Origin: Candidatus Gottesmanbacteria bacterium
GTDB taxonomy: Bacteria > Patescibacteriota > Microgenomatia > UBA10105 > UBA927
NCBI GenBank assembly: GCA_963714095.1
Contig: OY970230.1
Span: forward strand, 134,206 to 198,205
Direction of reading: 5' to 3'
DNA length: 64,000 nt
This document shows, piece by piece, positions 16,933-42,524 of this stretch. How positions within the stretch are numbered: position 1 is the first letter of the stretch; the number at the start of each line of letters is the position of its first letter. The notes beneath the pieces were generated by a model. The model had not been told where the DNA came from. It did not search any database and was given only the letters and a program-made list of their open reading frames with translations. A program made the position numbers and the translations under genes.

Positions 16933-18351
16933 ATGAAAAAACGACTGATCGCGCTCCTTTTTATCATTATTCTGCTTACCGGCGCGCTTTTTGCGATCTG
17001 GTACCATTCCGTCCACACGAAAGTGTTCATCACACGCCAAAAAACAGCCAGTGCTCCGCCCGATACCATACCGCAGCATCTTTCAAAAAAAACACCGTTT
17101 GACGTACTCCTTCTGGGCTACGGCGGCGGCACCCACGACGGGCCGTACCTTACCGATTCCATGATGGACATTCACGTCGATCCGAAAACTAAAAAAATAT
17201 TTCTTATTTCCATCCCGAGGGATTTGTGGGTCAATATTCCTACTGCCGGTACATCCGAATCCCCGTCTAAAATTAACGCAGCCTATGCCATTGGGTTGGA
17301 CGACACCATGTATCCCGATAAACAGGCACAGTTTAAAGGCCCGGACGGCGGCGGAAGGCTGGCGGAATATACAGTATCCCAGGTCATGGGACTGCCGGTA
17401 GATTATTTCGTCGGTATGGATTTTTCCGGTTTTGTAAAAACGATCGACACGATCGGCGGCGTTGATATAAATGTCCAGCCTGCATTTGATGATCCCGGGT
17501 ACCCCAACGAAGCCAGTGCCGCGGCCACGTGCGGGCACTCGGATGAAGACATAAAAGCGTTTATCGCAACAGTCTCTGCGGAATCAGATATCTGGGCGTA
17601 TTTCCCCTGCCGGTATGAAAACGTGCATTTTAATGCCGGACTGCAGCATATGGACGGAGATCGCGCGTTAATCTATGCCAGATCGCGCCACAGTGCCCAG
17701 GATGGCACTGACTTCGGCAGGGCGAGACGTCAGCGGAATCTCCTTATCGCAGTCGAACAGAAAATATTTACCGTCGGCTTTATTCCGAAAATCATTCCGT
17801 TTATCGACAGCCTGAAGGATGACCTTCGCACCGACCTGGCGCCATCGGATATCCAAACACTTATTCAGAATGCACCGGCGCTTGGCAAATACCAGATTGT
17901 CTCGCTTGCTCTCACCGACCAAAATTATTTAAAAGACTCATTTTCAAGCGATAACCTGGATATTCTCATCCCGAAAGACGGTCAGGGCAACTATACAAAT
18001 ATTCACGCATGGATTACCGACGTCATCTCAGGTAAACCGGAACCGTTTTCAGCAGTCGTACAGGTGCAAAACGGAACAAAAACAGAAGGACTTGCGCAGG
18101 TTGTAACAAATACGCTGGAGAATCTGAACATCAGGACAACACCGCCGACAAATACCGGCGGGATTATGTCGCCAAAAACAAGCATCATTGCCTTCGGTAC
18201 CAATATTAACCCCTCAGATCTTGCCATACTTGAAAAGGAATTTAACCCAGTAAAAATTTCGTACCAGCCCGCGACAGCCAGCGCCTACAACATCCGTATT
18301 GTTGTGGGAGCAGACTATACTGTGCATCTGACACCAACACCCACTCCGTAA
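16933..18351 (+). CDS. LytR-CpsA-Psr (LCP) family cell-envelope phosphotransferase
   Basis: N-terminal TM, LCP core LLLGYGGGTHDGPYLTDSMMDIHVDP...FLISIPRDLWVNIP...KINAAYAIG...VDYFVGMDFSGF, plus a C-terminal LytR_C-like extension. Confidence 0.75.
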   Translation: MKKRLIALLFIIILLTGALFAIWYHSVHTKVFITRQKTASAPPDTIPQHLSKKTPFDVLLLGYGGGTHDGPYLTDSMMDIHVDPKTKKIFLISIPRDLWVNIPTAGTSESPSKINAAYAIGLDDTMYPDKQAQFKGPDGGGRLAEYTVSQVMGLPVDYFVGMDFSGFVKTIDTIGGVDINVQPAFDDPGYPNEASAAATCGHSDEDIKAFIATVSAESDIWAYFPCRYENVHFNAGLQHMDGDRALIYARSRHSAQDGTDFGRARRQRNLLIAVEQKIFTVGFIPKIIPFIDSLKDDLRTDLAPSDIQTLIQNAPALGKYQIVSLALTDQNYLKDSFSSDNLDILIPKDGQGNYTNIHAWITDVISGKPEPFSAVVQVQNGTKTEGLAQVVTNTLENLNIRTTPPTNTGGIMSPKTSIIAFGTNINPSDLAILEKEFNPVKISYQPATASAYNIRIVVGADYTVHLTPTPTP

Positions 18352-18384
18352 CTTCTTTACCTCAATAACGCGGGGTTTATCAGG
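18349..18384. repeat. copy 1 of a ~36-nt repeated element (TAACTTCTTTACCTCAATAACGCGGGGTTTATCAGG); begins with the LCP stop codon
   Basis: Aligns by eye at about 30/36 with copy 2 (26282..26317) and with copy 3 (41383..41418) over the GCGGGG-centred core. Confidence 0.5.
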
Positions 18385-18421
18385 CATCAAAACGATAAAA
18401 ATCGTATGCTATAATTCTTGT

Positions 18422-20002
18422 ATGCCGAACTATTTGTTTAGGAAAATTCATATATCATTTGATGGTATTCTTTCAATCTTCCTTTTTTTCTTCACGTTTA
18501 TTATCGCCGGAAGTTTTTCACGCATCGGTATTGAACCTCTTCATGACGGGCTTCAGTTAAAGCCAGCCCTGGATGTCGCACGGGGCGTCATGCTTTTCCG
18601 AGATACGTTCACCCAATACGGAGCATTGACTACGCTCATTCAGGCCGGCGCGCTGGTCATTTTCGGCAAATATCTTTTAACACTGAAACTCTTAACAGCA
18701 GCGTTTTATGGTGGAATTGCCACACTCCAGTATCTTATATATAAACGCATTCTTCCGCGGCCTATCGCCTTCACAACTGTCATTCTGTGGGTGTTTTGTG
18801 CCCCCTATTTTTTCTGGATATTTCTTGCTTGGTCGTCGGTGTATACTCTTTTCTTTCAGCTCCTTACAGCGTATTTTTTCTTCATTTGGCTGGAAAAAAA
18901 GAACGTGCGTGTTCTCTTTTGGGCCGGGGTAACAACAGCTATTGTCTTTTATTTTAAACAAACAATAGGAATATTCACAACGTGCGGCATACTCGTATTT
19001 TTTATTGTTCTCTCTCTGCAAAAAAATCCTGCTTTTGCTAAAGCAAAAAAAGCTTTGTTTTATTTTCTCTCAGGAATACTTATCATCAACCTTTGTTTCG
19101 CGGTTTGGCTGGGCGTCAATCATAGTTTTTCTGCTTGGTGGAAAGAATCATTTGTTGTTGGGTATGTCTATGGCACGCAATTTACATCAATCGGTGATTT
19201 CCTGCATCTGCTCAAAATCACGTTATTTCCGCTGTCGGACCCTACGTTTATAACCAGCCCGGTAGAATTATGGGTACTTCTTCCGTGTACAACAATTATT
19301 GTTTTTATTCGCTATTGTTTCTTTGGTAAAAAAGGTAATCAGATCCACAGATCTCTTATTCTCTTGCTTTCGCTTGTCGGATTATCATCATGGAGCCAAT
19401 ATTATCCGATTATAGACTACCGTCATGTGTATTGGGGCGGTACACCGATGTTCGGCATTCTTGCGTTCTTCTGTTATGAAATAATCCGATACGTCATCTC
19501 TATTTTTCAGAAGCGCCCGTCGTCTCTTGCAACCATACTGACGGTTGTGGGATTATGCATTCTTTTTTACCCCGACGTATCCAATAGAATTATCCTGGGA
19601 AAAGAAAAGCTCTCTGCGCCGTACGAAACGCTTGAATATCCGCCTATTTTAAAAGGTATGCAGGTCACCGCAGAAGAAAAACAATATATCATGGCTTTTG
19701 AAAATTCTCTGGATACATATTTTGCAAAACATCCGAACGGCACGGTCGCTAATCTCAGTGAACAGGGTATTTATCCGTCCTTATATGATCATATGATGTA
19801 TATTCCTCCGTTATATGTCTATTGGCCTCAATTCTTCGGTTCAATCTTTCCAGACGTTTTGCCCCGTATGTTAACCTATATTTCACTTCATCACCCGCTC
19901 GTTGTTACATCCCGCACATCCATTCTTCCGCCTGGCTATTGTGCGGTCCAAAATTTAGATTCTCTCTATGGTTCGTACCTTGCGTTACCTTGCGGGGATT
20001 AA
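18422..20002 (+). CDS. GT-C superfamily polytopic membrane glycosyltransferase
   Basis: 526 aa, many TM helices. Fourth paralog of the ArnT/PMT-like type in this window. Confidence 0.5.
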   Translation: MPNYLFRKIHISFDGILSIFLFFFTFIIAGSFSRIGIEPLHDGLQLKPALDVARGVMLFRDTFTQYGALTTLIQAGALVIFGKYLLTLKLLTAAFYGGIATLQYLIYKRILPRPIAFTTVILWVFCAPYFFWIFLAWSSVYTLFFQLLTAYFFFIWLEKKNVRVLFWAGVTTAIVFYFKQTIGIFTTCGILVFFIVLSLQKNPAFAKAKKALFYFLSGILIINLCFAVWLGVNHSFSAWWKESFVVGYVYGTQFTSIGDFLHLLKITLFPLSDPTFITSPVELWVLLPCTTIIVFIRYCFFGKKGNQIHRSLILLLSLVGLSSWSQYYPIIDYRHVYWGGTPMFGILAFFCYEIIRYVISIFQKRPSSLATILTVVGLCILFYPDVSNRIILGKEKLSAPYETLEYPPILKGMQVTAEEKQYIMAFENSLDTYFAKHPNGTVANLSEQGIYPSLYDHMMYIPPLYVYWPQFFGSIFPDVLPRMLTYISLHHPLVVTSRTSILPPGYCAVQNLDSLYGSYLALPCGD

Positions 20003-20032
20003 CTTTAACTTTTTGCTCAAAAACGCAGGGTT

Positions 20033-23000
20033 TTATTTATCCAACAAGAATATTTTAAAAGAGATATCAGTGGAAAAAATCGGCGATCGCAACACTAAAG
20101 CACCTTTTTGTACGGGCTGTTCTGAAAGAATCAACCCTGTGGTCGTGCTAATCCATTGAATTTTTCCGTTTGCAGGAATCTTTAAAGATATTGTGCAATA
20201 GCTCGGCGCTGAATCCCAAATCCGACGAAAAACATAACCCAAAATTTGCTTTCCCGAGTCCATCGCGAATGCATTGGTAGCAGATGACGTAATCGGATGG
20301 TCAATAAGAGTAGTGGATAAATTTTTCGTAAACGTATTCAGAGCGGAAACATATTGTCGTTCGGTAGGGCCAATATAAAGATCGGACGCTCCTGAAGTAG
20401 CATCAACATTAGAGTACTGCATACGAGACGCATTCCAAAAAATAAAAAATATTTTGTTAAAAAAACCAGCCCATAAATGCACTCTCATTCTCGCCGCAGA
20501 CTGGTCATCCCAGTTTGAATAGAAATTTCCCTGTTCACTGAAGACAAGGGGTTTATGAGTCTTTTTATCTAATCCGGAATTCAAGGTTACTTCATTAACG
20601 CACGTTTGATCACATTTACGGGAATACCAGTGAACAGAGGTTATGTCAACTGATGAAAGGTCGGGCCGCTCCCAACTGACGGTAACCGGATGATGATACG
20701 GGTCGATGGATTTAATGTAGTCAGACATGAAGGTTATGAGGTGACCATCCAGCTTTATTTCGTTAGCAAGTTCCCAAACATCGACATACGCGGCATATCG
20801 GGCAACAACATAATCGAGATAGTGTTTGATAACAGTTTGTTTTTGGGCATCATTTAACGACGCATCAAATGGCAATTTAAAGCTGAACAATGTCATCCAG
20901 ACATGATAGTTATGACTGCGCAATGCGGAAAACAGAGTATCTGCCCATACCCCTTCATTGAGCGCATACCTGTTTCCCGAAGACGACAAGGTATTCCATA
21001 ACGTAAAACTACAGTTTCCCGGACCCCAACGGAAAATATTGAATCCGCTTTGTGCATAGGTGGATAGGTAGGTGTTCATAGACACTGCCACTCTGGTGCC
21101 CGGCTTTATATCGATCCCCAAAAACCATTGGCTCAACGGCTCACCGTCATTTTTAAGATCCAGTATACAATCCTGAATTCCTATGGGGGTGAAAATTGTG
21201 CCGTTTTGAAGGGTAAATATACGCGGGTCCGTTCGTGAGATGGACAAAAACCCCGGCATATCTGATGGAAGTGCGGTAAATGACCCATGCTGAGACGCGG
21301 ACGCCGTCCTAATTGTCCAGGTCCACCTTCCCGCCAACGAAGGCATAAAACGAAGTTTCCAAATGTTTTTATCATAATAAAATGCACGCACATTGTAGGT
21401 TTTCCCCTGGGCGTTTGAAAATATTCCTTCTATAAGCCCATCATCATATTTATTAGCGTATTGAGATTCATCTATATGAACAGAGATTTCATAGACGTCG
21501 TTGACGCGGATGGATCTGGGTGATGCATCAATTATTATTTTTTGCGAATTGGGTTTCACCGAAGCGAACGCCGACAACTGCTGAATAAAGTAAGTTACAT
21601 ATCCGTAAATTTTCGAGATACTATGAGAAGCATCGGAGATCATACGAATTCTTTTGCTTTGTAGAAATGGGATTGAGCTCTGGGTGTCTAACATAACGAC
21701 GCTCTTTTTATCTTTCGAAACGAAATACAAATCATCGGTATACACTGCCATACTGTTAATGTTCACATTGTTAGATTGGTATACCCATTTGCGTAATCCG
21801 GAGTGTTTATCAAGATAGGAAATGGTCGTTTGATTAGGATTGTTGGATACAAGATATATACCATCGCTGGTCAAAAAAGAGATATTTCCAAACTGATGTT
21901 CTTTTACACACCATTCCTTCCCCCCGCCGATCTTGAATGCACATTGTGCATCGTCTCCTAAAACGTATACATAATCTACATCAAACAGAATGACATTAAT
22001 TTTCCCGGCATTGACCTCTTCCGACCATTTTGTTGCCCCAGTAGCTGCGTCAACCATGGTAACGCGGTTGTAATCCGCTATCGCTAAAGAGCTAACACCT
22101 ATTTCCTTCATGACCAGCAGTTGTGTGGAATTGGTCGGACGCGTCCAGAGAATCGAGCCATTTGATGAGTCTATAGAGCTAATACTATTTTTTCCCGTTG
22201 GCAAATAACTTCGGGCAGCACCCTCATAGACTTGACTGCGGGAAGCAAACCGTTTATATACCGGCATTCCAGATATTTTATCAATAATGTTGTATGACCC
22301 ATCAGAATCAAAAAAGGCAATAGTTTTTGCAAATATGGTTGGTATTTGGGATAGATATCCATGGAGCGAAAACTTCCATACGGTCTTCCCCGTATTTTTA
22401 TTCAACGCATATATTGTTTTGTCGGCTGCACTGTTAAGGTAGACGTTCAGCTCATCAACAGCGAACCGCCCGAATAGTAAATCAGGATGGTTAATTGTCG
22501 CGTCGGGCGAAAGTGACCACATGTCTACCTGTGATGTTTGAAACTGCCACTTGAGACTGCCCGTAGATGCATCCAGTGCATAGAGTATCCCGTTTCGGCT
22601 CCCGAAATACACAAAGCCTCCGGAAATCACCGGTCCTGTATCCGCCATGAACAGGCCGGGGGTAACAAATTGCCATTGTTCTTTTCCTGTTCGGGTATCA
22701 ATGGCATATACCCGTCCGTCTAAGCTCGATACAAACATTACGTTATTTTCCCCGAATGCTGCAGGATAAATCGATGCCTTTTGCCCTTCATGACGCCATT
22801 GAAACACGCCTGTTATTCTATTTAAGCTATACGTAAATCCGCTCTGAACATTTATATATAGAGATGAATTATTTATCGAGAGCGAATTGTCCTCACGTGG
22901 GGATGCCGTCAATAAAGGAATTTCTTCAGAAAATGCATATTGCCACCCGTTCGTATACATCCACACGCCTACCCTGTCGAGAATCAGGGGTAAAAGAATG

Positions 23001-23179
23001 ATGCACAGTCCAATGAGAAAGTAATCTCGAAGATGCAGCCATCCGCGTTTAAATGTCAGACACTTCTGGTCTTCATGCTTCATGAGTAAATTGTACCTAA
23101 TGGAACCATGAGGAACAAGTCTATGCAAAGAATGCACAAAATGTCGGCGTTTATAAGACGCGTTTAACCAAAATGGCAT
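20033..23179 (-). CDS. membrane-anchored multidomain protein: N-terminal TM anchor, PQQ-like beta-propeller repeats, and a C-terminal TIM-barrel glycoside-hydrolase-like (clan GH-A/GH5-like) domain
   Basis: Repeats of the form DGRVYAIDTRTGKEQWQF, NGILYALDASTGSLKWQF and KTIYALNKNTGKTVWKF. The C-terminal region has VWELANE (NE acid/base-like) and LVFSEQG (nucleophile-like). The hydrolase assignment is tentative. Confidence 0.45.
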   Translation of the reverse strand: MPFWLNASYKRRHFVHSLHRLVPHGSIRYNLLMKHEDQKCLTFKRGWLHLRDYFLIGLCIILLPLILDRVGVWMYTNGWQYAFSEEIPLLTASPREDNSLSINNSSLYINVQSGFTYSLNRITGVFQWRHEGQKASIYPAAFGENNVMFVSSLDGRVYAIDTRTGKEQWQFVTPGLFMADTGPVISGGFVYFGSRNGILYALDASTGSLKWQFQTSQVDMWSLSPDATINHPDLLFGRFAVDELNVYLNSAADKTIYALNKNTGKTVWKFSLHGYLSQIPTIFAKTIAFFDSDGSYNIIDKISGMPVYKRFASRSQVYEGAARSYLPTGKNSISSIDSSNGSILWTRPTNSTQLLVMKEIGVSSLAIADYNRVTMVDAATGATKWSEEVNAGKINVILFDVDYVYVLGDDAQCAFKIGGGKEWCVKEHQFGNISFLTSDGIYLVSNNPNQTTISYLDKHSGLRKWVYQSNNVNINSMAVYTDDLYFVSKDKKSVVMLDTQSSIPFLQSKRIRMISDASHSISKIYGYVTYFIQQLSAFASVKPNSQKIIIDASPRSIRVNDVYEISVHIDESQYANKYDDGLIEGIFSNAQGKTYNVRAFYYDKNIWKLRFMPSLAGRWTWTIRTASASQHGSFTALPSDMPGFLSISRTDPRIFTLQNGTIFTPIGIQDCILDLKNDGEPLSQWFLGIDIKPGTRVAVSMNTYLSTYAQSGFNIFRWGPGNCSFTLWNTLSSSGNRYALNEGVWADTLFSALRSHNYHVWMTLFSFKLPFDASLNDAQKQTVIKHYLDYVVARYAAYVDVWELANEIKLDGHLITFMSDYIKSIDPYHHPVTVSWERPDLSSVDITSVHWYSRKCDQTCVNEVTLNSGLDKKTHKPLVFSEQGNFYSNWDDQSAARMRVHLWAGFFNKIFFIFWNASRMQYSNVDATSGASDLYIGPTERQYVSALNTFTKNLSTTLIDHPITSSATNAFAMDSGKQILGYVFRRIWDSAPSYCTISLKIPANGKIQWISTTTGLILSEQPVQKGALVLRSPIFSTDISFKIFLLDK

Positions 23180-23189
23180 CGTGCATATC
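23167..23189. repeat. R1 repeat copy A (ACCAAAATGGCATCGTGCATATC); antisense to the start codon and first codons of the 20033..23179 gene
   Basis: 22/23 nt identical to 26333..26355. Confidence 0.5.
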
Positions 23190-23245
23190 CAGATCCTTAG
23201 GAAGGAAGTATCAAAAATTAGTACAAAACATGATATATTAATTAA

Positions 23246-24757
23246 ATGAAAAAAATTATTATTTTAATTGTTAGTTTGACTGTTTGTTTATTACTATTGC
23301 TATCTCTCAGATATTATTCCTCATTTAAATCAGTAAATGCAAAGGTGTGTAACAAATGCAATGTAATTTTTATGTATATTGATACGCTGCGCGCGGATGA
23401 ATTGCCTTGCTGGGGATATACATATGATACGATGCCAAACGTATGCCATTTTGCCGAAAACGCAGCAAGTTTTAAAAACGCGTATTCTCAAAGCTCCTGG
23501 ACGTTGCCTGTTAATATGTCCATCATTACGTCACTGTATCCCTCCCAGCATAATATGTTAAGGGCTTATATCGATAGCCTGGATCCGTCGATTGTCACCA
23601 TGCCTCAAACATTCCAGGCAAACGGGTATTATACTGTTTTTGTCGGACAGTTAGACAATCCGCATTTACCAATTGATAAAGGATTAGGTAGGGGTTTTGA
23701 TGAAAAGATTAAGTATGAAACAATTGACGACTGGCATAAGGGATTATCAATTTTAGAAAAAAATAACGCCAAAGGAATCCCTAGTTTCTTATATATGCAT
23801 ACGTACTATGTCCATGATAGTTGGAAAGCAGCCGAAACTGATTCACTTGATTTCCATTTTGCGGGGGAAATGTCCAACCCCTATCACTATGATCCGCAAA
23901 GATTTAATAAAACCATCTGGGATACCGCAACGGCTTATTTGGAATATAATCCTGCTGATGTTCAAGGCGGAACTGAGTATGGGAAATTGGGCAAAGATCT
24001 TGAATCCGCAAAAAATGTAAACGCAGCCAAAATAATTTTCGATCAGCTGCCCGACAATACGAAGTCCATTATTAGGGATCTTTCAATAACGAAAGAATTG
24101 GACCCAACGAATCTAAAACTGATGCAATATCTCAGAAATTACTACGACGATTCCTTGTTTACGTTAGACCGACAAATAGGCATATGGTTAGAAGAATTAA
24201 AACAAAAAGGATTGCTTCAAAATACCATTGTGGTCATAGCAGGCGGAAACGGAGAAGCGTTTGGGGAACATGATGTGCTTGGTCATGCAAAGAATCTCTA
24301 CGATACCGTAACGCATGTTCCTCTTATCTATTATTTCCCCAACATTCAGCCGCAAACAAGATATGAGTTAACTCAAAGTATCGATATCTACCCTACGTTA
24401 TGCGGCTTAACAGGAATTAAATGCCCCGTTAACATTTCTGGTTCAAACTTTGCAAAAAGTCTTATGGGCAATTACTATGACAATCAAAATACGGGGCTGG
24501 TGAGCGAATTTGGTGATCAGAGTGAGCTAAAATCAATTCGAAATTTACGATGGAAATTTTATATTAACGAACAAACGAAAGATAAAGAATTGTATGATGT
24601 ATTACTTGATAAGGGAGAACGGACAAATCTAATCCAAAAATACCCGCAAATTGCCGATCATATGGAGCAGATGCTGTATTATACTCTCAGCACTAAAAGC
24701 AATCTCCCTATATTCGCGCTGCCTCCAATTCCGGTCCAAATACCAACATTGAAATAG
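23246..24757 (+). CDS. alkaline-phosphatase/sulfatase-superfamily protein, LtaS/MdoB-like (Thr-nucleophile type), secreted or anchored
   Basis: N-terminal signal anchor. Metal-site motif NVIFMYIDTLRADE. NAYSQSSWTLPVNMSIITSLYP parallels the LtaS/MdoB active-site block. No sulfatase CxPxR motif. Confidence 0.5.
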   Translation: MKKIIILIVSLTVCLLLLLSLRYYSSFKSVNAKVCNKCNVIFMYIDTLRADELPCWGYTYDTMPNVCHFAENAASFKNAYSQSSWTLPVNMSIITSLYPSQHNMLRAYIDSLDPSIVTMPQTFQANGYYTVFVGQLDNPHLPIDKGLGRGFDEKIKYETIDDWHKGLSILEKNNAKGIPSFLYMHTYYVHDSWKAAETDSLDFHFAGEMSNPYHYDPQRFNKTIWDTATAYLEYNPADVQGGTEYGKLGKDLESAKNVNAAKIIFDQLPDNTKSIIRDLSITKELDPTNLKLMQYLRNYYDDSLFTLDRQIGIWLEELKQKGLLQNTIVVIAGGNGEAFGEHDVLGHAKNLYDTVTHVPLIYYFPNIQPQTRYELTQSIDIYPTLCGLTGIKCPVNISGSNFAKSLMGNYYDNQNTGLVSEFGDQSELKSIRNLRWKFYINEQTKDKELYDVLLDKGERTNLIQKYPQIADHMEQMLYYTLSTKSNLPIFALPPIPVQIPTLK

Positions 24758-24825
24758 ATAACAATATACATAGGTACGTCGGCGAGTGTTCATGATATAA
24801 TTTCATCATACTATAGTAAAGTACA

Positions 24826-25470
24826 ATGAATATTCAGAGACATATAAAACTATATTTTTTTATCCTAATCTTGGTGTGCCTACTCGCAGTTGTAGGAATT
24901 ATTGTATGGAAAACCCGATTCACCTGTTCAACATATGAATGTCTGGTATTCCCCGAAAAAAATCTTTGGAAGATTCAGACTGTGTATGAAAAAGACAGTA
25001 ACGTTTTTAGGGGGCTTTTGGAGCGTCCTGATTATTTCGTCCGGCTGGAACGGGTCTCGCTTTTGCAACAGCAACAAAGCGCTGACAACCTCACGAAGAT
25101 CCGTCTCATGCAAATTCAGGGATTATTTGATACTGCACAGTCACCATATCCGGGTGTTATTACCGACAGAATTGTGTGTGCCGATACATACAAACCTAAT
25201 CCCGACATCCTAACCACGGCGTCGGGCGTAGGCATCACGTATTTTTCCGCTTTTCTCAATAGTCGGCTCCAATACGGTATATGTACTGATGACCAAATTG
25301 TCTATAAGGTATATACAGCATTATTTTCCTGTCAACAAACGGACGATTGGTATTCGGTTGAACTTATTGTTCCGAAGGGGAAAGCTTCTAGCGATTCCGC
25401 GTATATTGGGCTCTTTCGGCAGATTGGTTGTCAACGACCATCTGTAAACCTAGTCAAATTTTTGCCTTGA
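24826..25470 (+). CDS. hypothetical secreted/membrane-anchored protein
   Basis: N-terminal TM helix. No recognisable catalytic motifs. Confidence 0.35.
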   Translation: MNIQRHIKLYFFILILVCLLAVVGIIVWKTRFTCSTYECLVFPEKNLWKIQTVYEKDSNVFRGLLERPDYFVRLERVSLLQQQQSADNLTKIRLMQIQGLFDTAQSPYPGVITDRIVCADTYKPNPDILTTASGVGITYFSAFLNSRLQYGICTDDQIVYKVYTALFSCQQTDDWYSVELIVPKGKASSDSAYIGLFRQIGCQRPSVNLVKFLP

Positions 25471-25523
25471 ACAAAACCCGGGATCGTAAATTGAAGTATA
25501 TAGTAATATGAGAACATATTATC

Positions 25524-33831: not shown

Positions 33832-33852
33832 CGTCGTTCAGGTTGTCATTAC

Positions 33853-34932
33853 GTGCCAAACTGTAGTAGAATCAGCCAAGGAATTACTATGGTACGGAAT
33901 CTGGAAATCGAACCACGCAGGCTTATCGAAAATCAACGTACGTTGCCACCGATATGGTGGGACAGTTTGAACGGACTTACCGACCCTCATAAAGTATTAT
34001 TAGTTACTACTCCTTCTGCAGAGTTGCAGTTTAATCCAGTCTCAGCTGGATTTAATATTGTTGACCATCTGCACGTGGCAGATGAAACGCAAAAAACAGC
34101 AGACGAGATGCTACTCTACCCCGGCGATACTATTGAAAAAGTTTTCGCTGTGGGCGGCGGAAGAGCAATAGATATGGCAAAACTTATAGCCCACCGATGG
34201 GATAAAGAATTAATTGCCATTCCGACGATTCTTTCGACCGATGCGTTTCTGGTAAATTCTACGGGAGTGAGAACTGACGGATGCGTCAAATATATTCAAT
34301 CTAAACAACCTGATCTGATACTTTTCGACATGGATGTATTAAAACAAGCACCCTATGTATATCATGCTTCCGGTTGTTGTGATGTTCTCTCCATTGTTAC
34401 CGCCGTATCGGATTGGAAATTGGCTCATGACAAAGGTAAATTACTTCCCGATGAACCATATATCGAATCGGTTGCACAAACATCAAAAGCGATAGTGAGC
34501 TATCTATTTGAAAATGCTGAAAATATTTCTGCAAAAACTCCTGAAGGGCTTACTGCCATCATCAATGCTCTTTCTATGGAAGTTGAGTTATGTAATCTGT
34601 ATGGAAATAGCCGACCGGAAGAAGGCGGTGAACATTTTTTTGCATATGCTATTGAATCCCGTTTACCTCACGCAATACATGGAGAACTAGTAGGACTTGG
34701 TATTCTCTTAACTGCATATATGCAGCACCAACCATGGCAAGAGGTACAACATTTTATGGACAGCATCGGAATGAATTATCGCCCTCAAGGTATATCTACC
34801 CAGATAATCACTGACACACTGGAGGGAATGCGTGAGTATGTTGAACGTCATGCGCTTCGATACAGTATCTGGAATGAATATCATCATAATGAAAAAAACA
34901 TCCAGACATTTCTAAATGCCATACATTTATGA
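33853..34932 (+). CDS. iron-containing ADH superfamily polyol(-phosphate) dehydrogenase, glycerol-dehydrogenase/G1PDH(AraM)-like
   Basis: VFAVGGGRAIDMAKLIA (NAD-binding GGG..D.AK) and IAIPTILSTDAFLVNS (IPT..STDA block of GldA/G1PDH rather than the VPTTLLAQVDS of DHQS). Confidence 0.6.
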   Translation: MPNCSRISQGITMVRNLEIEPRRLIENQRTLPPIWWDSLNGLTDPHKVLLVTTPSAELQFNPVSAGFNIVDHLHVADETQKTADEMLLYPGDTIEKVFAVGGGRAIDMAKLIAHRWDKELIAIPTILSTDAFLVNSTGVRTDGCVKYIQSKQPDLILFDMDVLKQAPYVYHASGCCDVLSIVTAVSDWKLAHDKGKLLPDEPYIESVAQTSKAIVSYLFENAENISAKTPEGLTAIINALSMEVELCNLYGNSRPEEGGEHFFAYAIESRLPHAIHGELVGLGILLTAYMQHQPWQEVQHFMDSIGMNYRPQGISTQIITDTLEGMREYVERHALRYSIWNEYHHNEKNIQTFLNAIHL

Positions 34933-35633
34933 ATGAAATACCACTAAAAACAACAGAACTTGAGGCGGTCATGAAAGGGTTAGAGCGACAATCAACAAAA
35001 CGGGTTGTCCTACTCTATTCCGGCGGCGCGGACAGTACTGCAGCAGGACTAAAACTTCGTGAAGACGGATATTCCGTCTACCCTATATTCTTTGACTATA
35101 ATCAAAGCGCCCGGGACGCAGAGCGTTTTCTTGTAAGTAATGCTCCCGATACACTTGGTTTTGAAAAAACGAAAATCGTGCGAACAGACTTACTTACAGA
35201 CCTAAGTCACAGCGCACTGCTTGGAGGCGACGCCAAAGATGACACATCGGCATGGGTTCCCGGTCGAAACACGCTTTTCATGATTGCTGCGGGCATTTAT
35301 GGACATCAGATAGATGCTGACGGCATCGCCATCGGATATATGCGTTCAGATGAAGGGGTATTCGGAGATTCAAATAAGCTGCATCACAAAATAGTAGAAA
35401 CACTTCTTGAAAAAACACTTTCCCGACCTATGGAAGTTCGCTTACCTTTGGCACAAATGACAAAAATGGACGTATTGCAGTACCTCAACGATCACAGAGT
35501 TATTGATCTTACCGTATCGTGTTGGAATGCAACACTTCAGGGTAATACAGTTCAAACGTGCCATACATGCGCAAACTGCGTCGAACGTGAAGAAAGCCTT
35601 CGTGGGATTATCTACCAATACGGTAAAAAATAG
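34929..35633 (+). CDS. queC: 7-cyano-7-deazaguanine synthase
   Basis: PP-loop VVLLYSGGADST. C-terminal zinc motif CWNATLQGNTVQTCHTCANC. ATGA overlap with the preceding Fe-ADH gene. Confidence 0.85.
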   Translation: MNEIPLKTTELEAVMKGLERQSTKRVVLLYSGGADSTAAGLKLREDGYSVYPIFFDYNQSARDAERFLVSNAPDTLGFEKTKIVRTDLLTDLSHSALLGGDAKDDTSAWVPGRNTLFMIAAGIYGHQIDADGIAIGYMRSDEGVFGDSNKLHHKIVETLLEKTLSRPMEVRLPLAQMTKMDVLQYLNDHRVIDLTVSCWNATLQGNTVQTCHTCANCVEREESLRGIIYQYGKK

Positions 35634-35676
35634 AGTTTAGATTGATTTTACGGTCTAAAAGCGTATAATATTCCCT

Positions 35677-36648
35677 ATGCCTGTCTCAGAAATTCTCAAA
35701 CGACTCGACGAATACGACATCCGTCCCAACGAACAACTTGGGCAACATATTCTCATTGACCCCAAATGGCTTGGCTATATTGCTGATCAAACCTGTCGTG
35801 GCGGACATGTTATAGAAATCGGAGCCGGACCAGGGAACCTGACTGAACCCATTGCGGCGCTCGCAAAATACGTTACTGCGATTGAACTGGATCGCCGATA
35901 TGAACCCATGTTGCAGGATCTTCATGAACGACATCCCAACGTAACCGTTATATTCGGGGACGCCATTAAGCAGGATTTTCGACAATTACAAAAACAATCT
36001 GATAGAACACTGCAGATTATCGGAAATATCCCCTATCACATTTCAGAACCGCTTATGAAAAAACTTACTGATGTCCCTATGGAAGATGCCGTGCTTACGG
36101 TCGGCGATAAACTGAGTGAAACATTACGGGAAACGAATCCTTCTAGCATTAATTTCACAAGACTTTCTCTTCTTGCATTAGGTTTTTTCGACGTAGATTT
36201 ATTAGCTAAAATTCCAAAAAGTGCCTTTTATCCAATGCCAAGGACAGAATCGCAAATCATAAGGATTACGCCGAAAATGAAAGCGGAATCATCCAATCCC
36301 GGTATTCGCGTTATTCAACAATTATTTCTAAGCGGTGATAGTTCATCAGTCGAAAATATTATGAGAACGGCACTCAACGGCGGAATATCGGATCGAAAGC
36401 TACGATACAAAGATGAACAGAATAGATACGAACGTCGGGAAACACGAAGATCGTTGGAAATGATGAGGCGCGGATATAATGCTTCTCAAGACCTCTCGGA
36501 AGAAGATGGGCAACAAGGCATGTCTAAAGATCCGATATCACTAATGAACATACCGGGACAGATTCTCACCCACAGATTTTCCAGTCTTAGCAATGACGAA
36601 GTGTGCACGCTCTCAAAAGCTATCTTAGACGTCTATCCAAGTCAATAA
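35677..36648 (+). CDS. KsgA/Dim1/Erm-family rRNA adenine N6-dimethyltransferase-like protein with a ~100-aa basic C-terminal extension
   Basis: QHILIDPKW, HVIEIGAGPGNLTEPIA and IIGNIPYHISEP (NLPYNIS-type catalytic motif). The C-terminal extension is unusual: RKLRYKDEQNRYERRETRRSLEMMRRG. Confidence 0.65.
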   Translation: MPVSEILKRLDEYDIRPNEQLGQHILIDPKWLGYIADQTCRGGHVIEIGAGPGNLTEPIAALAKYVTAIELDRRYEPMLQDLHERHPNVTVIFGDAIKQDFRQLQKQSDRTLQIIGNIPYHISEPLMKKLTDVPMEDAVLTVGDKLSETLRETNPSSINFTRLSLLALGFFDVDLLAKIPKSAFYPMPRTESQIIRITPKMKAESSNPGIRVIQQLFLSGDSSSVENIMRTALNGGISDRKLRYKDEQNRYERRETRRSLEMMRRGYNASQDLSEEDGQQGMSKDPISLMNIPGQILTHRFSSLSNDEVCTLSKAILDVYPSQ

Positions 36649-37399
36649 ATCCGGAACCTTTAGATTTTTCTATCAACTCTATTTCACGACTCCACTGTTC
36701 GTTCATGGCACATTTTTTACTCACCAAATCAGATACCATTTCTATTATCGGGTTGCTATCCTGATTATCTGATAAATTAATCTTCTTATCATCTATATAA
36801 ACCGACTTATTCAAAAGATCCAACACTATCTTCCCTTTTCGTTTCAAATAAATGGTTATCTCTCTTCTTGGATTGCCATATCCGCAATAAAGTTTCCAGG
36901 GAATTTTTTTCTTGGTTAAATAAAACCATAAATCAACATCGTGTATCCCTAGATCATATAACGGATCACATTCATAATCCCATGGTGGCTTCATTCCTAA
37001 TCGGTAACTTGTTATATAATCAATTTCTGACAGTTCAATAGTTTTCTTAAAATATTTGACGGCAGGATTATATCGTTCTAAAGTTGACTGATAAAAAAGT
37101 AATTTTTTCTCTTTGGCTAACGTTTCCAATTCTTTTGCATCGGATGATGAAAAACATACGGGCTTTTCGCATAAAACATTATATCCGTGTAACAGGAGCA
37201 TTTTTGAACATTTAAAATGTAATGGGGTTGGTGTCGCGACGATTGCAAAATCAACAGTCTCACCATATCGTATAAATTTTTCAACTGTATTGAAGTACAT
37301 CCCGTGAGATACCGGAAGGATATCCACGATGTATGTTGCATGAAGAAGGCTATCATAAAGTTTTCCCATTCTTCCGTAACCGATTATTGCTGTAGTCAT
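36620..37399 (-). CDS. Gfo/Idh/MocA-family NAD(P)-dependent oxidoreductase
   Basis: N-terminal Rossmann TAIIGYGRMGK and the family EKP motif (VLCEKPVCFS). Confidence 0.6.
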   Translation of the reverse strand: MTTAIIGYGRMGKLYDSLLHATYIVDILPVSHGMYFNTVEKFIRYGETVDFAIVATPTPLHFKCSKMLLLHGYNVLCEKPVCFSSSDAKELETLAKEKKLLFYQSTLERYNPAVKYFKKTIELSEIDYITSYRLGMKPPWDYECDPLYDLGIHDVDLWFYLTKKKIPWKLYCGYGNPRREITIYLKRKGKIVLDLLNKSVYIDDKKINLSDNQDSNPIIEMVSDLVSKKCAMNEQWSREIELIEKSKGSGFIDLDRRLR

Positions 37400-37403
37400 A
37401 CAA

Positions 37404-38468
37404 TTATTTATTCACAAAATCAGTAAGTTTTTTCGCAAGAGTCTGCCAAGACAGGTCTTTTACCAAATTCGTATTGTATATTCTGCAAGCAGCGTCCAAT
37501 AATACAGCCCGTTCGATACCTTTACGCCATGCATCAACAGTGGAAGCAACCAAATACCCGGTCTTTCCATTTTTCAACAGCCAGTCAATTCTTCCGGTTC
37601 CCATAACGATCGGTTTGCCGACGGCTAAATACTCGCTGATGGCAATGGGACTACAATCCGTTTCAACCGGGAATACAAGCACATCGGCGATATTTGTATA
37701 TTTAGGCACATCAGCATAGGAAACAGCACCGCAAAGAATAACATTTTTACGTTTTGGAATTTCCCTCTTCACAGGCCCGTCTCCTACGATAAGGAAAATA
37801 TAATTATCCGGAATTGCGCGTGCAATGAGTTTAATATGTTCATAAAACCTACCGAGCTTTCCCGTATATACAACGATCTTTTTATTGAGTAAATCAGTAT
37901 GGAATGTGCTTGAAAAATCTTTTTTCAATGCTACAACATCCGGCTGCGAGTACGGATAAAAAAGTGTTTTATCGTACCCATTAGGAATAACGATTACATC
38001 CTTTGTTTTTAATCCGGACTGCTGGAGCATTTTTAAATTTACTGGGGATTGAGAAACAACTTTGTTTGCTTTTTCCAAAAGGTATGAGAGTCCGTATTGT
38101 AATAAATAATACGTTGCGTTTATACCATATTCCTTCAGGTACATCTCGTTATACCAATCGATACTGTCAAATAGCAAAGAAATTTTACATGTTTCTTCTA
38201 TAAGCAACCCGCTCAGAGGATTATCTACCATCAAAAGATCGAATCGCCGGGTGCGCAGATATTTCTGCAAACGCTGTCTTTCGCGGATAACATCATCAAT
38301 TGAACAAATAACTGCATGGCGGAAAAAACTAAAAGAAATATCCGTACAATGTTGTGCTAAAAACTGTTCCCGCTGGGGAAATCCGGATACATACGACTGG
38401 CTGAAATTCTGTAAGCTTTGAGCATAAACTTTATCGCCGATTTTCAGTATCTTTTTCATTGAAACCAT
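37404..38468 (-). CDS. GT4-family (GT-B) glycosyltransferase
   Basis: C-terminal VLVFPVETDCSPIAISEYLAVGKPIVMGTGR resembles the GT4 E..E region. Confidence 0.55.
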   Translation of the reverse strand: MVSMKKILKIGDKVYAQSLQNFSQSYVSGFPQREQFLAQHCTDISFSFFRHAVICSIDDVIRERQRLQKYLRTRRFDLLMVDNPLSGLLIEETCKISLLFDSIDWYNEMYLKEYGINATYYLLQYGLSYLLEKANKVVSQSPVNLKMLQQSGLKTKDVIVIPNGYDKTLFYPYSQPDVVALKKDFSSTFHTDLLNKKIVVYTGKLGRFYEHIKLIARAIPDNYIFLIVGDGPVKREIPKRKNVILCGAVSYADVPKYTNIADVLVFPVETDCSPIAISEYLAVGKPIVMGTGRIDWLLKNGKTGYLVASTVDAWRKGIERAVLLDAACRIYNTNLVKDLSWQTLAKKLTDFVNK

Positions 38469-39463
38469 CCTTGTAATGCATGGGTAACTCTATGTATCTC
38501 CGCATGAGTAAGATTCCAACGGCATGGTATGGCAACGATAGAAGAAGTTACATCTTTATAGTTTTGTTTTTGATCATCGGGGAGCATGTCTTCGTCATAA
38601 TATACCAATGTTTGGATACCCTGTTTATCCATATATGTTCTAAATTTATTTCTATCCGTGATAAGCATATTAAAAACTGAATAGGTATGATAGGTGTTCG
38701 CTTCTTCCGCTAAAAACGGTTGATATCCCGGAATAACTTTTTTATACTCGTGTGCTATATCCCGCTGGGTTGCGATACGTGTGTCATACCCCTTAAGCTC
38801 TTTGAGAAGATATTCTGCTTTAATTTCATCAATACGCAGATTCAGTGCGATCGAATCTGTCATCGCTCCGTTTTCCCGCCCGGATTCTATAAATGTTTTC
38901 ATCTGCCGGTAATAGTGTTCATCACTCGTAACAACGGCTCCCGCGTGACCACAAGCATGAAGTGATTTGGTTGGATAAAAGCTGAAGCAACCTATTTTCC
39001 CGAAGGTACCCACAAATTTACCGTTAAACTTTGCTCCGAATGCCTGACAGGCATCCTCAATATAATTCTGCATTTTTATCTGACCAAGCAAATAATGTGG
39101 CTGACCGAAAAGATGAGTAATCGTCATCAAACTCGACCGTGATGGTATTCTGACATTCTTCTTCGGATTGTAAGGAATATACCGTTTAAAATTCACGGTA
39201 TACTGCAGCATTTTTGCCGGCTGATATGTTGCAGGGAACGTATATGGATCAACAGTTAAACTTTTATAGTTATCTTTCAACACCCAATACGCGGCAAGGA
39301 GCGCTGCCGTTCCGTTATTCGTTAATACAACGTACGGAGCATGGAGATATTCCTTTAATTTTTCCTCCAGCTCTTTTGTTTTTTTACCGTCAACCCACTT
39401 ACCGCTGTTATAGATATCACTTGTATAGTTCGAACCTAATTTATATATGGAAATATACTTCAT
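38456..39463 (-). CDS. DegT/DnrJ/EryC1/StrS-family PLP-dependent sugar aminotransferase
   Basis: DACQAFGAKFNGKFVGTFGKIGCFSFYPTKSL block with PLP Lys (YPTKSL). Confidence 0.75.
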   Translation of the reverse strand: MKYISIYKLGSNYTSDIYNSGKWVDGKKTKELEEKLKEYLHAPYVVLTNNGTAALLAAYWVLKDNYKSLTVDPYTFPATYQPAKMLQYTVNFKRYIPYNPKKNVRIPSRSSLMTITHLFGQPHYLLGQIKMQNYIEDACQAFGAKFNGKFVGTFGKIGCFSFYPTKSLHACGHAGAVVTSDEHYYRQMKTFIESGRENGAMTDSIALNLRIDEIKAEYLLKELKGYDTRIATQRDIAHEYKKVIPGYQPFLAEEANTYHTYSVFNMLITDRNKFRTYMDKQGIQTLVYYDEDMLPDDQKQNYKDVTSSIVAIPCRWNLTHAEIHRVTHALQGWFQ

Positions 39464-40185
39464 AATAAATTCAGCAAATCAATAGCCTTATGATTTAATG
39501 GCTGATAATTATTTACAATAAACGCTTCACCATACGATGCTCCGATAGACTTTCCCCTAAATTCCGCAAGATGGAACAATTTAGTACGTAACCATTGCTC
39601 ATCAGCTCCATGCTCACCTTTCACTGATGCATACAATGAAAATGCTTCTATTTTTCTTTGGATATTTTGCTTCGACAATTCAGATACGAAATGGAAACTA
39701 AATATAGATGTCATCTCCAAATCAATCTCTCCCTGCAACACAACAGGCGCTTTCCATGTTTGTGTACCGCCACAGAGTTCACAGTCGCTTTGGAAATTAG
39801 CTTCAGGAACAATTTCTCCAAGCGTTCTATGGTCTATATGCTTATCTTCTGCATGATGTGTGATAATAACATCCGGTTGAACACGTCGAATCTCTTTAAT
39901 GGTTTTTTGAATAAGCAGTCCTTTGTCTTTTTGAAGACGCATGTCCTGAAGTTTTAGAAATTTCACGGAATAACCCAAATATTTACTGCTTTTAGTCGCT
40001 TCGCTCATTGCTCTATGGCGACGCGTGTTTTGCGTCTCCGTTTTAAAGTACGCCTGGTCATTCAGGGTGTAATAGGTTACGAAAACTTTATGACCGTGCT
40101 TCACGAGCTTATCCATCATCGCTCCGCACATGATCACTTCATCATCCGGATGTGCCACTAAAACAAGAATTTTCATAGATTGCAA
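39460..40185 (-). CDS. PIG-L/LmbE-family N-acetylglucosaminyl deacetylase
   Basis: VLVAHPDDEVIMCGA zinc-binding motif and downstream HHAEDKHIDH. Confidence 0.75.
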   Translation of the reverse strand: MQSMKILVLVAHPDDEVIMCGAMMDKLVKHGHKVFVTYYTLNDQAYFKTETQNTRRHRAMSEATKSSKYLGYSVKFLKLQDMRLQKDKGLLIQKTIKEIRRVQPDVIITHHAEDKHIDHRTLGEIVPEANFQSDCELCGGTQTWKAPVVLQGEIDLEMTSIFSFHFVSELSKQNIQRKIEAFSLYASVKGEHGADEQWLRTKLFHLAEFRGKSIGASYGEAFIVNNYQPLNHKAIDLLNLL

Positions 40186-40299
40186 TAACTAGAATATATT
40201 GCTAGGACGGGCTTATTATATCATTTTACTCAAATACACCTATAGAAACCAGTCTTAAAATAACAACTTCGGGGATACTTGCATTGAAACAGCCCACAA

Positions 40300-40572
40300 T
40301 CATTTATTCGAATCAAATGGCGCACTTATATTACATTCCTTACAAGACAAATAATATAAAACAGTGCCTGTAGGCATTGATTGACCAAATAATGGTCTGG
40401 TAACGGCATTTTTGATAGTAACTTCTAACGGGACACTTTTCGAACAATTTTCCAAATGAGGAAAATTGCCTCTCAATTCCTCTTGAGAATAAACAGCAAG
40501 ATTTGTTTTCCAAGAAAAACCTTCCTTTAAGAATTGTCCGATTACGTGAAGTTTATTGGTTATTTTTTCCAT
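40300..40572 (-). CDS. hypothetical small protein
   Basis: 90-aa ORF with no recognisable motifs. Sits between the LmbE gene and a methyltransferase gene on the same strand. Confidence 0.3.
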   Translation of the reverse strand: MEKITNKLHVIGQFLKEGFSWKTNLAVYSQEELRGNFPHLENCSKSVPLEVTIKNAVTRPLFGQSMPTGTVLYYLSCKECNISAPFDSNK

Positions 40573-40589
40573 AAATATTTTGTTTAAAA

Positions 40590-41348
40590 TTATATCCTCT
40601 TTGCAACCAGTACGATTCTATGTCGAGGAAGTTGAATACCCTTTTCTGTTTTGAATTTTACTACGTATTCTTTGAGCAACGCTCCGTCTTTTTCGGAATC
40701 AAAATCTTCAAAAATAGGCACTCCTTGTAAAAATTTGTCTACATCCTCATACGATGCATAATATTCGTCATAAAAATATTCCTGGGCGAAAACGATGTTA
40801 AATCCTGCGTCAATAAGTTTTTGTTTTTCCTTTTCTAACCTTGAAGTACTCCATGCCTTATATCCCTGCCCTCGCCCAAATACTTCTTTGATTGCCTGAC
40901 AATCCCTTTCACCTATATCAATTCCCACAAAATAGCCGTCTGGTTTCAATAATCGTTGAAACTCAAGATATGGTGTTGGTCCCCGGCGGGAAAAAATAAC
41001 ATCAAACGATCTATCAGAAAATGTTGTTCTTTGCGCGTCTTGAAGTTTAAATGTAAAATTTTTAACTACGAGTACCTTTTGTTTTTCTCCCGCAACTTTG
41101 AGTAATTCCTTGGATGTATCAATACCTGTAATCGATAAAAAAGACTTGGCGATTCCAAAGGAAAACTTGCCGTCTCCGCAACCCGCATCAAAAGCTTTTA
41201 TCTTGTTACCCGCTAAACCAAGGAGTTTTTCTTTGAAAACTTTTTCAGGATCTCCGGCTGGATATTCCGTACGGTAATCAACACGACCGGTACCAAAGGC
41301 ATATCCACCGAATTTCTTTGCAACTTTATCGTAAAAATTTGTGGTCAT
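40590..41348 (-). CDS. class I SAM-dependent methyltransferase
   Basis: Motif I KAFDAGCGDGKFSFGIA and motif II VIFSRRG. Confidence 0.65.
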   Translation of the reverse strand: MTTNFYDKVAKKFGGYAFGTGRVDYRTEYPAGDPEKVFKEKLLGLAGNKIKAFDAGCGDGKFSFGIAKSFLSITGIDTSKELLKVAGEKQKVLVVKNFTFKLQDAQRTTFSDRSFDVIFSRRGPTPYLEFQRLLKPDGYFVGIDIGERDCQAIKEVFGRGQGYKAWSTSRLEKEKQKLIDAGFNIVFAQEYFYDEYYASYEDVDKFLQGVPIFEDFDSEKDGALLKEYVVKFKTEKGIQLPRHRIVLVAKRI

Positions 41349-41381
41349 ACAGCTATTTTACCATTGAAGAAAGTAAATGTA

Positions 41382-42524
41382 TTAGCTTCTCTGTCTCAAG
41401 AACGCGGGGATATCAAATTCGTCTTCCTCCGGCGGCAATTCGTCGGCAGGAATCGGAGGCGTATTGCGCGGTTGTTGCGGCTGATTGGACGTCTGTGTCA
41501 CGCGCGTCGCCTGCGGCTGGGCCATTGTGCTGTAACTCGGCTGGCCGGAAAGCTCCCGTAATCGTTTCTTGGTTTCGTCAAATCCCGTTGCAATCACGGT
41601 GATTTTTACCTGATCAACCATATTCTGATCGATTGTTGCTCCGAAAATGATATTTGCGTCCGGATCAACGGCTGATGCAATTTGTTTGGCGGCTTCATCC
41701 ACTTCGGACATCGTGAGGTCCGGTCCGCCGGTAATGTTAAACAGAACCCCCTTCGCCCCTTCAATGGAAATCTCAAGAAGCGGCGAGGCGATCGCTGTAC
41801 GTGCAGCCGTGGCAGCACGGTTTTCCCCGACACCGGTCCCGATACCCATAAGGGAACTTCCTGCATTGGTCATAATGGTACGCACATCGGCGAAATCTAC
41901 ATTAATAAGGCCGGGCATCGTGATGAGGTCTGCAATTCCCTGCACACCCTGACCGAGAACCGAATCCGTCACGCGGAATGCGTCCAAAAGCGTCATTTTC
42001 TTATCAATCACCTCCATAAGCCGCTGGTTGGGAATGACGATAAGCGTATCAACCTTGTCTTTGAGATTCATGATGCCTTCTTCCGCGGTTACCATGCGGC
42101 GCGTTCCTTCAAAATGAAACGGTTTGGTAACGACCGCTACGGTAAGAGATCCTAATTCTTTGGCAATTTCGGCGATAATCGGCGTTGCGCCTGTCCCCGT
42201 ACCTCCCCCTTCACCGCAGGTCAAAAATACCATGTCGGCATCCCGCAGATATTCTTTCAGTTTTTCCCGCGATTCTTCCGCCGCTTGTTTCCCTATCTCT
42301 GGATCACCGCCTGCCCCCAGTCCTCGTGTCAAATTTTCTCCTATCTGTACTTTCGTTGCCGCCTGGCACGTCAATAGTGCCTGTGCGTCGGTATTGACGC
42401 CGATAAAATCTACACCGGTTATCTCATTCCCGACAACCATTGAATTAATGGCGTTGCATCCGCCGCCGCCGATACCGATGACCTTAATTTTTGCAAACCG
42501 GGCAATGTCAGGTTTTATGAGCAT
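41382..42524 (-). CDS. ftsZ: cell division GTPase FtsZ
   Basis: GGGTGTG tubulin signature ([15 protein letters not shown]) and conserved C-terminal peptide [10 protein letters not shown]. Confidence 0.95.
41383..41418. repeat. copy 3 of the ~36-nt repeated element (TAGCTTCTCTGTCTCAAGAACGCGGGGATATCAAAT); antisense to the last codons of ftsZ (..[10 protein letters not shown])
   Basis: About 28/36 identical to copy 2 by eye. Overlaps the conserved FtsZ C-terminal peptide coding sequence. Confidence 0.5.

Follow-up and report, generated by a model that had tools for sequence, protein, structure and literature searches.

Elements carrying a tyrosine integrase are known to integrate at the 3' ends of conserved genes, as exemplified by the prophages and islands found in tRNA and tmRNA genes, by SXT/R391 in prfC, and by ICESt1/ICESt3 in fda. 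Related to these are the cis-mobilisable elements (CIMEs), remnants that are flanked by attachment (att) sites and lack an integrase, known from the ICESt family of Streptococcus thermophilus. Other modules rely on Xer recombination: integrative mobile elements exploiting Xer (IMEX), such as the CTX phage, do so at dif, and pdif modules occur in Acinetobacter plasmids. In the candidate phyla radiation (CPR, or Patescibacteria), mobile elements are poorly characterised and genetic manipulation is very hard. Here we analyse a stretch of 64,000 nucleotides (hereafter the window) from a Candidatus Gottesmanbacteria bacterium (contig OY970230.1, positions 134,206 to 198,205), in which three copies of a short repeat, one of them antisense to the last codons of ftsZ, bracket about 23 kb of accessory genes between ftsZ and ileS. 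The FtsZ encoded there is 78–83% identical to that of Candidatus Gottesmanbacteria genomes, which belong to the Microgenomates within the CPR. We put the probability at about 85% that the repeats were left behind, as attachment-site products, by a family of small integrative elements found in Gottesmanbacteria and other Microgenomates; these elements would use an Xer-like tyrosine integrase to insert at the tail codons of FtsZ.

The three copies had been described, in one orientation and at gene 3' ends, in an earlier note made from the letters of this DNA, and the description holds. A repeat search of the window grouped them as one family (D3). A 29-nt consensus with at most 3 mismatches matches copies 2 and 3 only (0/100 shuffles), and a 15-nt core with at most 1 mismatch has four matches in the window, all on the same strand, where 0.09 are expected. 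In an ungapped 41-nt comparison against copy 2, scores of 25/41 or more are reached at two window positions only, the ftsZ tail (copy 3; 30/41) and copy 1 (27/41). The surroundings were also given correctly: the TAA at 18349–18351 in copy 1 is the stop codon of a LytR-CpsA-Psr (LCP) gene, copy 2 (26281–26321) begins 11 nt past the stop of a methyltransferase gene at 25524–26270, and copy 3 corresponds, in reverse complement, to the final ftsZ codons.

The nature of the copies is apparent on the ftsZ strand, where copies 2 and 3 alike spell IPAFLRQRS followed by a stop; the two copies have ATCCCCGC in common and agree at 27 of 30 positions over core and tail. In copy 2, these codons of the FtsZ C-terminal peptide follow V-L-stop with no gene ahead; having a stop codon directly in front and no start codon, this tail lies outside any gene. 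Copy 1 reads LINPALLR-stop-RSY, a decayed ftsZ tail with an internal stop, and it carries an element-type left arm (CCTGATAAACCCCGC) rather than the ftsZ coding arm. The similarity among the copies is therefore a mosaic, as had been noticed earlier: copies 1 and 2 have a common element-type arm (CCTG..ATAAA), and copies 2 and 3 have common tail codons. The copies are displaced 3' ends of ftsZ, not a structural RNA motif.

In relatives, the same kind of site is found together with an integrase. We refer to the related loci by number (L001 onwards). In L004, also from Gottesmanbacteria, two extra ftsZ-tail copies, CTGTCCTATAAATCCCCGCRTTTTTGAGACAGAGAA, lie downstream of its own ftsZ. They are nearly identical to window copy 2 and differ in their codons from L004's own ftsZ tail; this mismatch indicates that the site travels between genomes and was not locally duplicated. 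The segments between the sites in L004 carry no integrase, the order being the peptide deformylase gene (def) and a 173-aa gene, a site, small open reading frames (ORFs), and another site. A metagenome scan with the site of L004 returned two loci only, L081 and L082. The order in L082 is ftsZ, attL (the site on the ftsZ side), a 340-aa tyrosine recombinase (PF00589, 6e-32), a rolling-circle replication (RCR) protein of the Phage_CRI family, attR (the site at the far end), and def. Candidate catalytic motifs of this integrase, as read from its sequence, are GCRYSE, HNFRHS, GHKD and STYMH, and its closest solved structures are Xer-type recombinases and IntI4. The family has 332 matches at E ≤ 1e-20. 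The best 120 of these 332 share 62–80% identity and have a length of about 338 aa; a source is named for only a few of these 120, all of them from Gottesmanbacteria or other Patescibacteria.

Genomic context was examined for ten distinct family members (L002, L082, L085/86, L087-90, L091, L096, L097, L098, L100 and L101), and in all ten the integrase lies directly beside the 3' end of ftsZ. In seven, a second ftsZ-tail copy with a conserved arm closes the element, this attR being 4.7–7.9 kb away. In six of these seven intact elements, attL and attR are identical only over 8–21 nt from AT(C/T)CCCGC; in L096 the run is broken by a T/C mismatch. Beyond this core, the tails at attL and attR encode FLRQR(S/N) and a stop with different synonymous codons. 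The short identity, taken together with the synonymous tails, points to integration within the I-P-A-F codons, with a replacement end supplied by the element. What follows the ftsZ stop (gggcatttagcttcaa...) is conserved from element to element across different hosts. The attP reconstructed from these sites is TGTCCTATAAAT-CCCCGC-ATTCTTAAGACA, in which two imperfectly inverted arms of about 12 bp are symmetric at 9/12 positions by manual reading; such a dyad has the appearance of a typical tyrosine-recombinase core. In L101 the integrase (4742–5824) is convergent with ftsZ, not co-directional.

The window's copy 2 belongs with these sites. Together with about 110 nt of flank (26281–26419), it lines up with the attR arms found in L004 (two copies), L081, L082 and L091, and an nhmmer profile finds it at E = 1.5e-36 over 1.4 Mb of loci. 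A profile built from the attR sites of several genomes gives window-only E-values of 3.6e-35 for copy 2, 5e-8 for the ftsZ tail, and 1.4e-4 for copy 1. Across about 1.5 Mb of loci its matches lie downstream of ftsZ only. With integrase elements at the same position in relatives, and with the flank of copy 2 homologous to their attR arms, the note's proposal of att-like repeats left by site-specific integration at the ftsZ 3' end gains support, as does its idea that the FtsZ C-terminal peptide was regenerated, given the synonymous replacement tails at attL and attR of the relatives' elements.

As to their contents, the elements have as replicon either the Phage_CRI-type RCR protein or a Prim-Pol/PriCT primase-helicase, and their cargo varies (HicA, NYN, KAP NTPase, zeta toxin, S49-type protease). 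No virion or conjugation genes were recognisable in them. With these replicon types and without such genes, they look like small integrative, plasmid-like elements. L097 (1423–3387) has a Prim-Pol/PriCT/AAA_25 replicase in place of Phage_CRI, and the 7.9-kb element of L100 (9204–15409) carries the KAP NTPase together with the zeta toxin. The L096 (1–4778) and L098 (1–5770) sequences are short contigs that span precisely attL to attR. Such breaks of the assembly graph at the att sites suggest coexisting integrated, empty or circular forms in the samples concerned, and these contig ends are the only hint of ongoing activity in the element family. Searched against viral contigs, the integrase gave a single match: a 46%-identical integrase stands at the very start (1–1032) of a predicted viral contig of 38 kb (L084, IMG/VR UViG_3300020152_000254), its upstream side being cut off at the contig start; if this integrase also targets ftsZ, larger phages use the same site.

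Base composition sets the region between the outer copies apart. GC content is 0.47–0.52 in ileS, the LCP gene and ftsZ, and 0.38–0.42 in the four segments that copies 1 and 3 enclose; at third codon positions (GC3) it is 0.49–0.54 in ileS, the LCP gene, ftsZ, ftsA and murG, and every enclosed gene falls at 0.25–0.47. The steps in GC and GC3 coincide exactly with copies 1 and 3, two of the places at which the earlier note had suggested looking for compositional shifts, and the block has the deviant composition and sharp boundaries of a genomic island.

Comparison of the region downstream of ftsZ, which had also been suggested, revealed empty sites. In many relatives ileS directly follows ftsZ on the same strand, with a gap of 426 nt in L003 and a similar arrangement in L011, L012, L017, L019 and L022. 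In other relatives the gap is 1–7 kb; in the window it is 24.5 kb. None of the window genes between ileS and ftsZ, the LCP gene included, has a homologue downstream of ftsZ among about 90 related loci. The variable gap, and genes that occupy it in the window only, mark the ftsZ–ileS interval as an insertion hot spot. Unoccupied targets are seen in L003 (ftsZ–ileS) and in L004, where ftsZ–def corresponds to ftsZ–element–def in L082. The def gene directly follows ftsZ in L004 (11156–11698) and follows the attR of the element in L082 (269–847); the two proteins look quite different by eye, and, def and the 173-aa gene being followed in L004 by an attR-type site, def may be island cargo there. Relics of the ftsZ tail also occur 0.5–1.7 kb downstream of ftsZ (L007, 8563–8602; L023, 11777–11808; L006, 12837–12875, inverted) in other lineages of Microgenomates, Levyibacteriota among them, so that targeting of the ftsZ tail extends beyond Gottesmanbacteria. 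An ancestral order with the LCP gene convergent with ftsZ, as the earlier note had envisaged, was found in no relative, many of which have ftsZ–ileS; yet the LCP gene is core-like (GC3 0.53), and that order is possible in the window's own lineage.

We propose the following course of events. The integrase of an element would recombine into the I-P-A-F codons of the conserved FtsZ C-terminal peptide, with strand exchange taking place within AT(C/T)CCCGC(ATT). The element would supply synonymous codons for FLRQR(S/N) and the stop, so that FtsZ would stay intact, and the displaced old tail, joined to the element arm, would be left behind as attR at the opposite end. For the window, this would make copy 3 the ftsZ-side site, copy 2 an intact attR, and copy 1 an older, decayed attR, while a fragment of element arm at 23.2 kb and perhaps a weak copy at 20.0 kb would be other attR scars. 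Each new arrival would insert next to ftsZ and push older material toward ileS; an intact site nearest ftsZ, with decayed sites toward ileS, is the order expected from such a process. The 23 kb of low-GC DNA would be horizontally acquired cargo stacked at the hot spot. The mosaic finds its explanation here too, in an element arm common to copies 1 and 2 and a tail common to copies 2 and 3.

The earlier note had spoken of one or two islands. Integration itself is supported, and the number of stacked insertions is probably more than two, up to four segments. The arm fragment at 23163–23218 has an nhmmer E-value of 0.007 over 1.4 Mb of loci and 0.029 in the window alone, and it includes one half of a 22/23 repeat (family D6; 23167–23189 matching 26353–26375) that belongs to the element arm. 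It is followed by a core-like stretch at 23121–23161, which scores 20/41 against copy 2 and is not significant alone. The weak, indel-bearing copy at 20001–20043 is the fourth match of the 15-nt core and reads NPAFLSKKL. The 22/23 repeat overlaps the annotated start of a 1048-aa ORF; with this repeat being a fragment of an attR arm, the true start of that gene is probably downstream of 23179.

Several results weigh against the integration reading, in whole or in part. No recombinase of any Pfam family was found among the window ORFs of at least 110 aa, no tblastn match to the family integrase was found in the window, and no replication gene lies in the window or between its sites; the sites here would therefore be relics, or dependent on an integrase supplied in trans. 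In Segment A, as we call the block between copies 3 and 2, the 33 nt that separate its first gene from the ftsZ stop are unlike the element arm gggcatttagcttcaa of the integrase-bearing loci, which argues that Segment A is not a simple copy of those elements. A free or circular attP form was not found, the viral-contig scans being empty and the metagenome scan returning only its two loci. Nor was insertion or excision polymorphism seen in the window's own population: other contigs with an identical FtsZ or an identical 248-aa methyltransferase have the same arrangement. For the additional scars, the 20.0-kb copy scores 22/41 against copy 2, within background, with a profile E-value of 0.22, and the core-like stretch at 23.2 kb does not rise above background on its own score. 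Finally, homologues of the Segment A gene cluster in other Patescibacteria have no ftsZ and no att sites around them, which speaks for other routes of movement. The repeat and its coding nature, the arm homology, the architecture of integrase, attL and attR in relatives, the steps in composition, and the lack of a recombinase in the window are direct observations. We infer that the window segments entered by recombination at the ftsZ tail and that the integrase modules belonging to them have since disappeared or were never present, the latter implying mobilisation in trans.

The nearest alternative overlaps with this integration reading and differs from it only in present-day mobility and in the cassette-like unit. 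Here the ftsZ tail of Gottesmanbacteria would be a working platform, still active, at which integrase-less blocks ending in an arm-plus-core site, up to the size of the 15-kb cluster, are captured and released again by an integrase that the 5–8 kb elements supply in trans. The perfectly preserved dyad core and full arm of copy 2 suit such a platform, as do the recurrence of integrase-less, site-bounded segments in L004, the variable cargo just inside attR of the elements (HicA, NYN, KAP NTPase, zeta toxin), and the resemblance to the element-type TTYTTRAGACAG, which is greater in the right arms of the window ftsZ tail and copy 2 than in the tails of L001, L003 and L004, all free of integrase elements. 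We nevertheless consider continued activity unlikely: the window is without an integrase, the viral-contig scans yielded no circular junction, the window's population is not polymorphic, the older copies have decayed as fossils would, and the cluster is present elsewhere without att sites. If true, it would resemble integron cassettes or the streptococcal CIMEs and amount to integron-like gene shuffling in CPR bacteria, with an essential cell-division gene as its anchor.

The remaining explanations dispense with integration. Local duplication of the ftsZ 3' end by slippage, unequal crossing-over or gene conversion in the course of unrelated insertions, with no site-specific recombinase involved, would account for all copies being near ftsZ and in its orientation and for the lack of an integrase in the window; it is very improbable, however, considering that element arms in other genomes have a homologue in the flank of copy 2, that the L004 copies use codons unlike those of L004 ftsZ, and that the same sites delimit intact integrase elements. 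The earlier note had itself offered a conserved terminator or 3' untranslated region, to which a dispersed repeat of the repetitive extragenic palindromic (REP) type at gene ends may be added. Copies 1 and 2 do lie at the 3' ends of plus-strand genes and the site has weak dyad symmetry, but the copies fold as RNA no better than shuffles (z = −0.6, −1.0 and +0.1), no terminator-like site was called at any of them, and the motif occurs nowhere else in the 64 kb and, in relatives, only downstream of ftsZ; we reject this option as scarcely credible. Equally far-fetched is the notion that small peptides or protein tails are made from the extra copies and, as mimics of the FtsZ C-terminal peptide, compete for FtsA binding. 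It could draw on the exact IPAFLRQRS-stop of copy 2 and on one L004 copy that is in frame with a short upstream reading frame, and it runs into the stop codon that precedes copy 2, the lack of a start codon there, the internal stops in copy 1 and in the L087 attR, and a conservation that extends into the non-coding arm instead of into a reading frame. A link with dif or the replication terminus was also considered and rejected, the cumulative GC skew being monotonic across the window. The features of the window are collected in Table 1.

Table 1. Coordinates, strand and supporting details of the attachment-type sites, the segments between them and the adjoining genes
Feature	Position	Strand	Details
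Live ftsZ 3' end (copy 3), chromosomal attachment site (attB, or attL after integration)	41382..41422	-	Core ATCCCCGC at 41404-41411; counterparts are the attL sites of integrase-bearing elements in L082, L085, L087, L091, L096, L098, L100
Copy 2, intact attR-type site	26281..26419	-	~130-nt alignment with attR arms of L004, L081, L082, L091; non-coding tail stop-IPAFLRQRS-stop 26281-26310; core-proximal arm CTGTCCTATAA 26311-26321; element-derived arm, ~100 nt, to 26419
Element-arm fragment, probably the scar of another insertion	23163..23218	-	D6 repeat, nhmmer
Possible old scar, ftsZ-tail-like	20001..20043	-	Flanked by the 526-aa and 1048-aa genes, whose ends converge here; just past the 1048-aa gene stop
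Copy 1, decayed attR-type relic, outer edge of the low-GC block	18348..18388	-	Profile, 27/41, GC3 step
Segment A, 15.0 kb, 39.6% GC	26420..41381	.	Pfam: biosynthetic genes
Segments D, C and B, 38-42% GC	18389..26280	.	Pfam; D: PMT_2-like membrane glycosyltransferase; C: 1048-aa PQQ-propeller/DUF5060 protein; B: sulfatase, 214-aa protein, methyltransferase
ftsZ, last gene of the dcw cluster (mraZ ... murG-ftsQ-ftsA-ftsZ), 52% GC	41382..42524	-	
ileS	14040-16862	-	Core composition, far side of the insertion block
LCP (LytR-CpsA-Psr) gene	16933-18351	+	Core composition, far side of the insertion block

Segment A, which copies 2 and 3 delimit as the earlier note stated, is a 7-deazapurine cluster. 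By Pfam, its genes (26539–41348) comprise the preQ0 genes folE2, queD, queE and queC, genes of the PIG-L, DegT, GT1 and GFO families, a glycerol-1-phosphate dehydrogenase (G1PDH)-like Fe-ADH_2 gene, a 526-aa radical-SAM protein, a SPASM radical-SAM protein, an APH-like kinase, and an Erm/KsgA-like RrnaAD methyltransferase; neither an integrase nor a replication gene is among them. A block flanked by two sites and holding biosynthetic genes only resembles a CIME, and might be mobilised in trans. Homologues of the cluster, with 40–75% protein identity, lie at unrelated loci in a few other Patescibacteria, L092–L095 (L092, 2741–18814; L094/L095, 8241–20966). As these loci are free of att sites, the cluster is horizontally mobile in its own right. 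Segment A may have come in by integrase action, as cargo or in trans, or by insertion between pre-existing scars. Only 16 homologues of the 526-aa radical-SAM protein turned up among 5.8 billion proteins, and for the SPASM radical-SAM protein no solved relative was found. Judging by the rRNA-methylase-like and kinase genes, the product could perhaps be a deazapurine glycoside that targets the ribosome, with self-resistance encoded alongside. A 2-deoxystreptamine-type aminoglycoside pathway, which was also considered, found no support, the Fe-ADH-like protein being closest to glycerol-1-phosphate and glycerol dehydrogenases.

Elsewhere in the window, there are two genes of the FtsW/RodA/SpoVE family, one in the dcw cluster (45695–46906) and one just past ileS (12982–14073). 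A second low-GC patch, at 5001–8000 (0.35 against about 0.47), is located within a polysaccharide locus with a GT1 glycosyltransferase, a methyltransferase and a Wzx-type flippase, and is probably another horizontally replaced segment.

For the CPR, the widespread integrase family described here (332 matches), with its element-side and chromosome-side sites resolved to base level, represents a candidate tool for site-specific integration in Microgenomates. It also offers a possible explanation for the variable ftsZ–ileS gap and for the accessory genes arriving there, the 7-deazapurine/sugar cluster included. In addition, it would show in nature how the FtsA-binding tail of FtsZ can be rewritten by a mobile element with the protein left unchanged.

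How do these elements compare with the systems described so far? Like the elements that integrate at the 3' ends of conserved genes, they have an att core over the last codons of such a gene and bring a synonymous replacement end; direct repeats bound the insert, the integrase is near one end, and the core is a dyad. They differ in their target, the ftsZ tail, in their CPR hosts, and in being about 5–8 kb long, with an RCR (Phage_CRI) or Prim-Pol replicon and no conjugation or virion genes. We found no description of ftsZ as an integration target in the searchable literature, of which our coverage is incomplete. With tandem accretion and CIMEs, the window has in common that segments are stacked at one att site with att copies between them, that no recombination genes lie inside, and that the outer copies are more decayed; unlike in those systems, the cargo includes a 15-kb biosynthetic cluster also present elsewhere without att sites, and mobilisation is hypothetical here.

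Integron cassette arrays are similar in having gene blocks, each followed by a site copy, next to a fixed platform, and IntI4 is among the closest structures of the integrase. However, no IntI-type integrase lies beside the window array, the copies are not attC-like hairpins, and in intact ftsZ elements the integrase travels with the element and does not reside on the platform. An integron proper was accordingly rejected for the window, which has no integrase and whose copies fold no better than shuffles. IMEX and pdif modules share with the ftsZ elements a short dyad of 28–30 bp, an Xer-like recombinase, modules bounded by sites and, often, a filamentous-phage-type Phage_CRI protein; they differ in that here the element and not the host encodes the recombinase, insertion is into ftsZ instead of dif, and GC skew places no terminus in the window. 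The mechanism is classical, and what is new is the target gene, the host clade, and the family of small elements.

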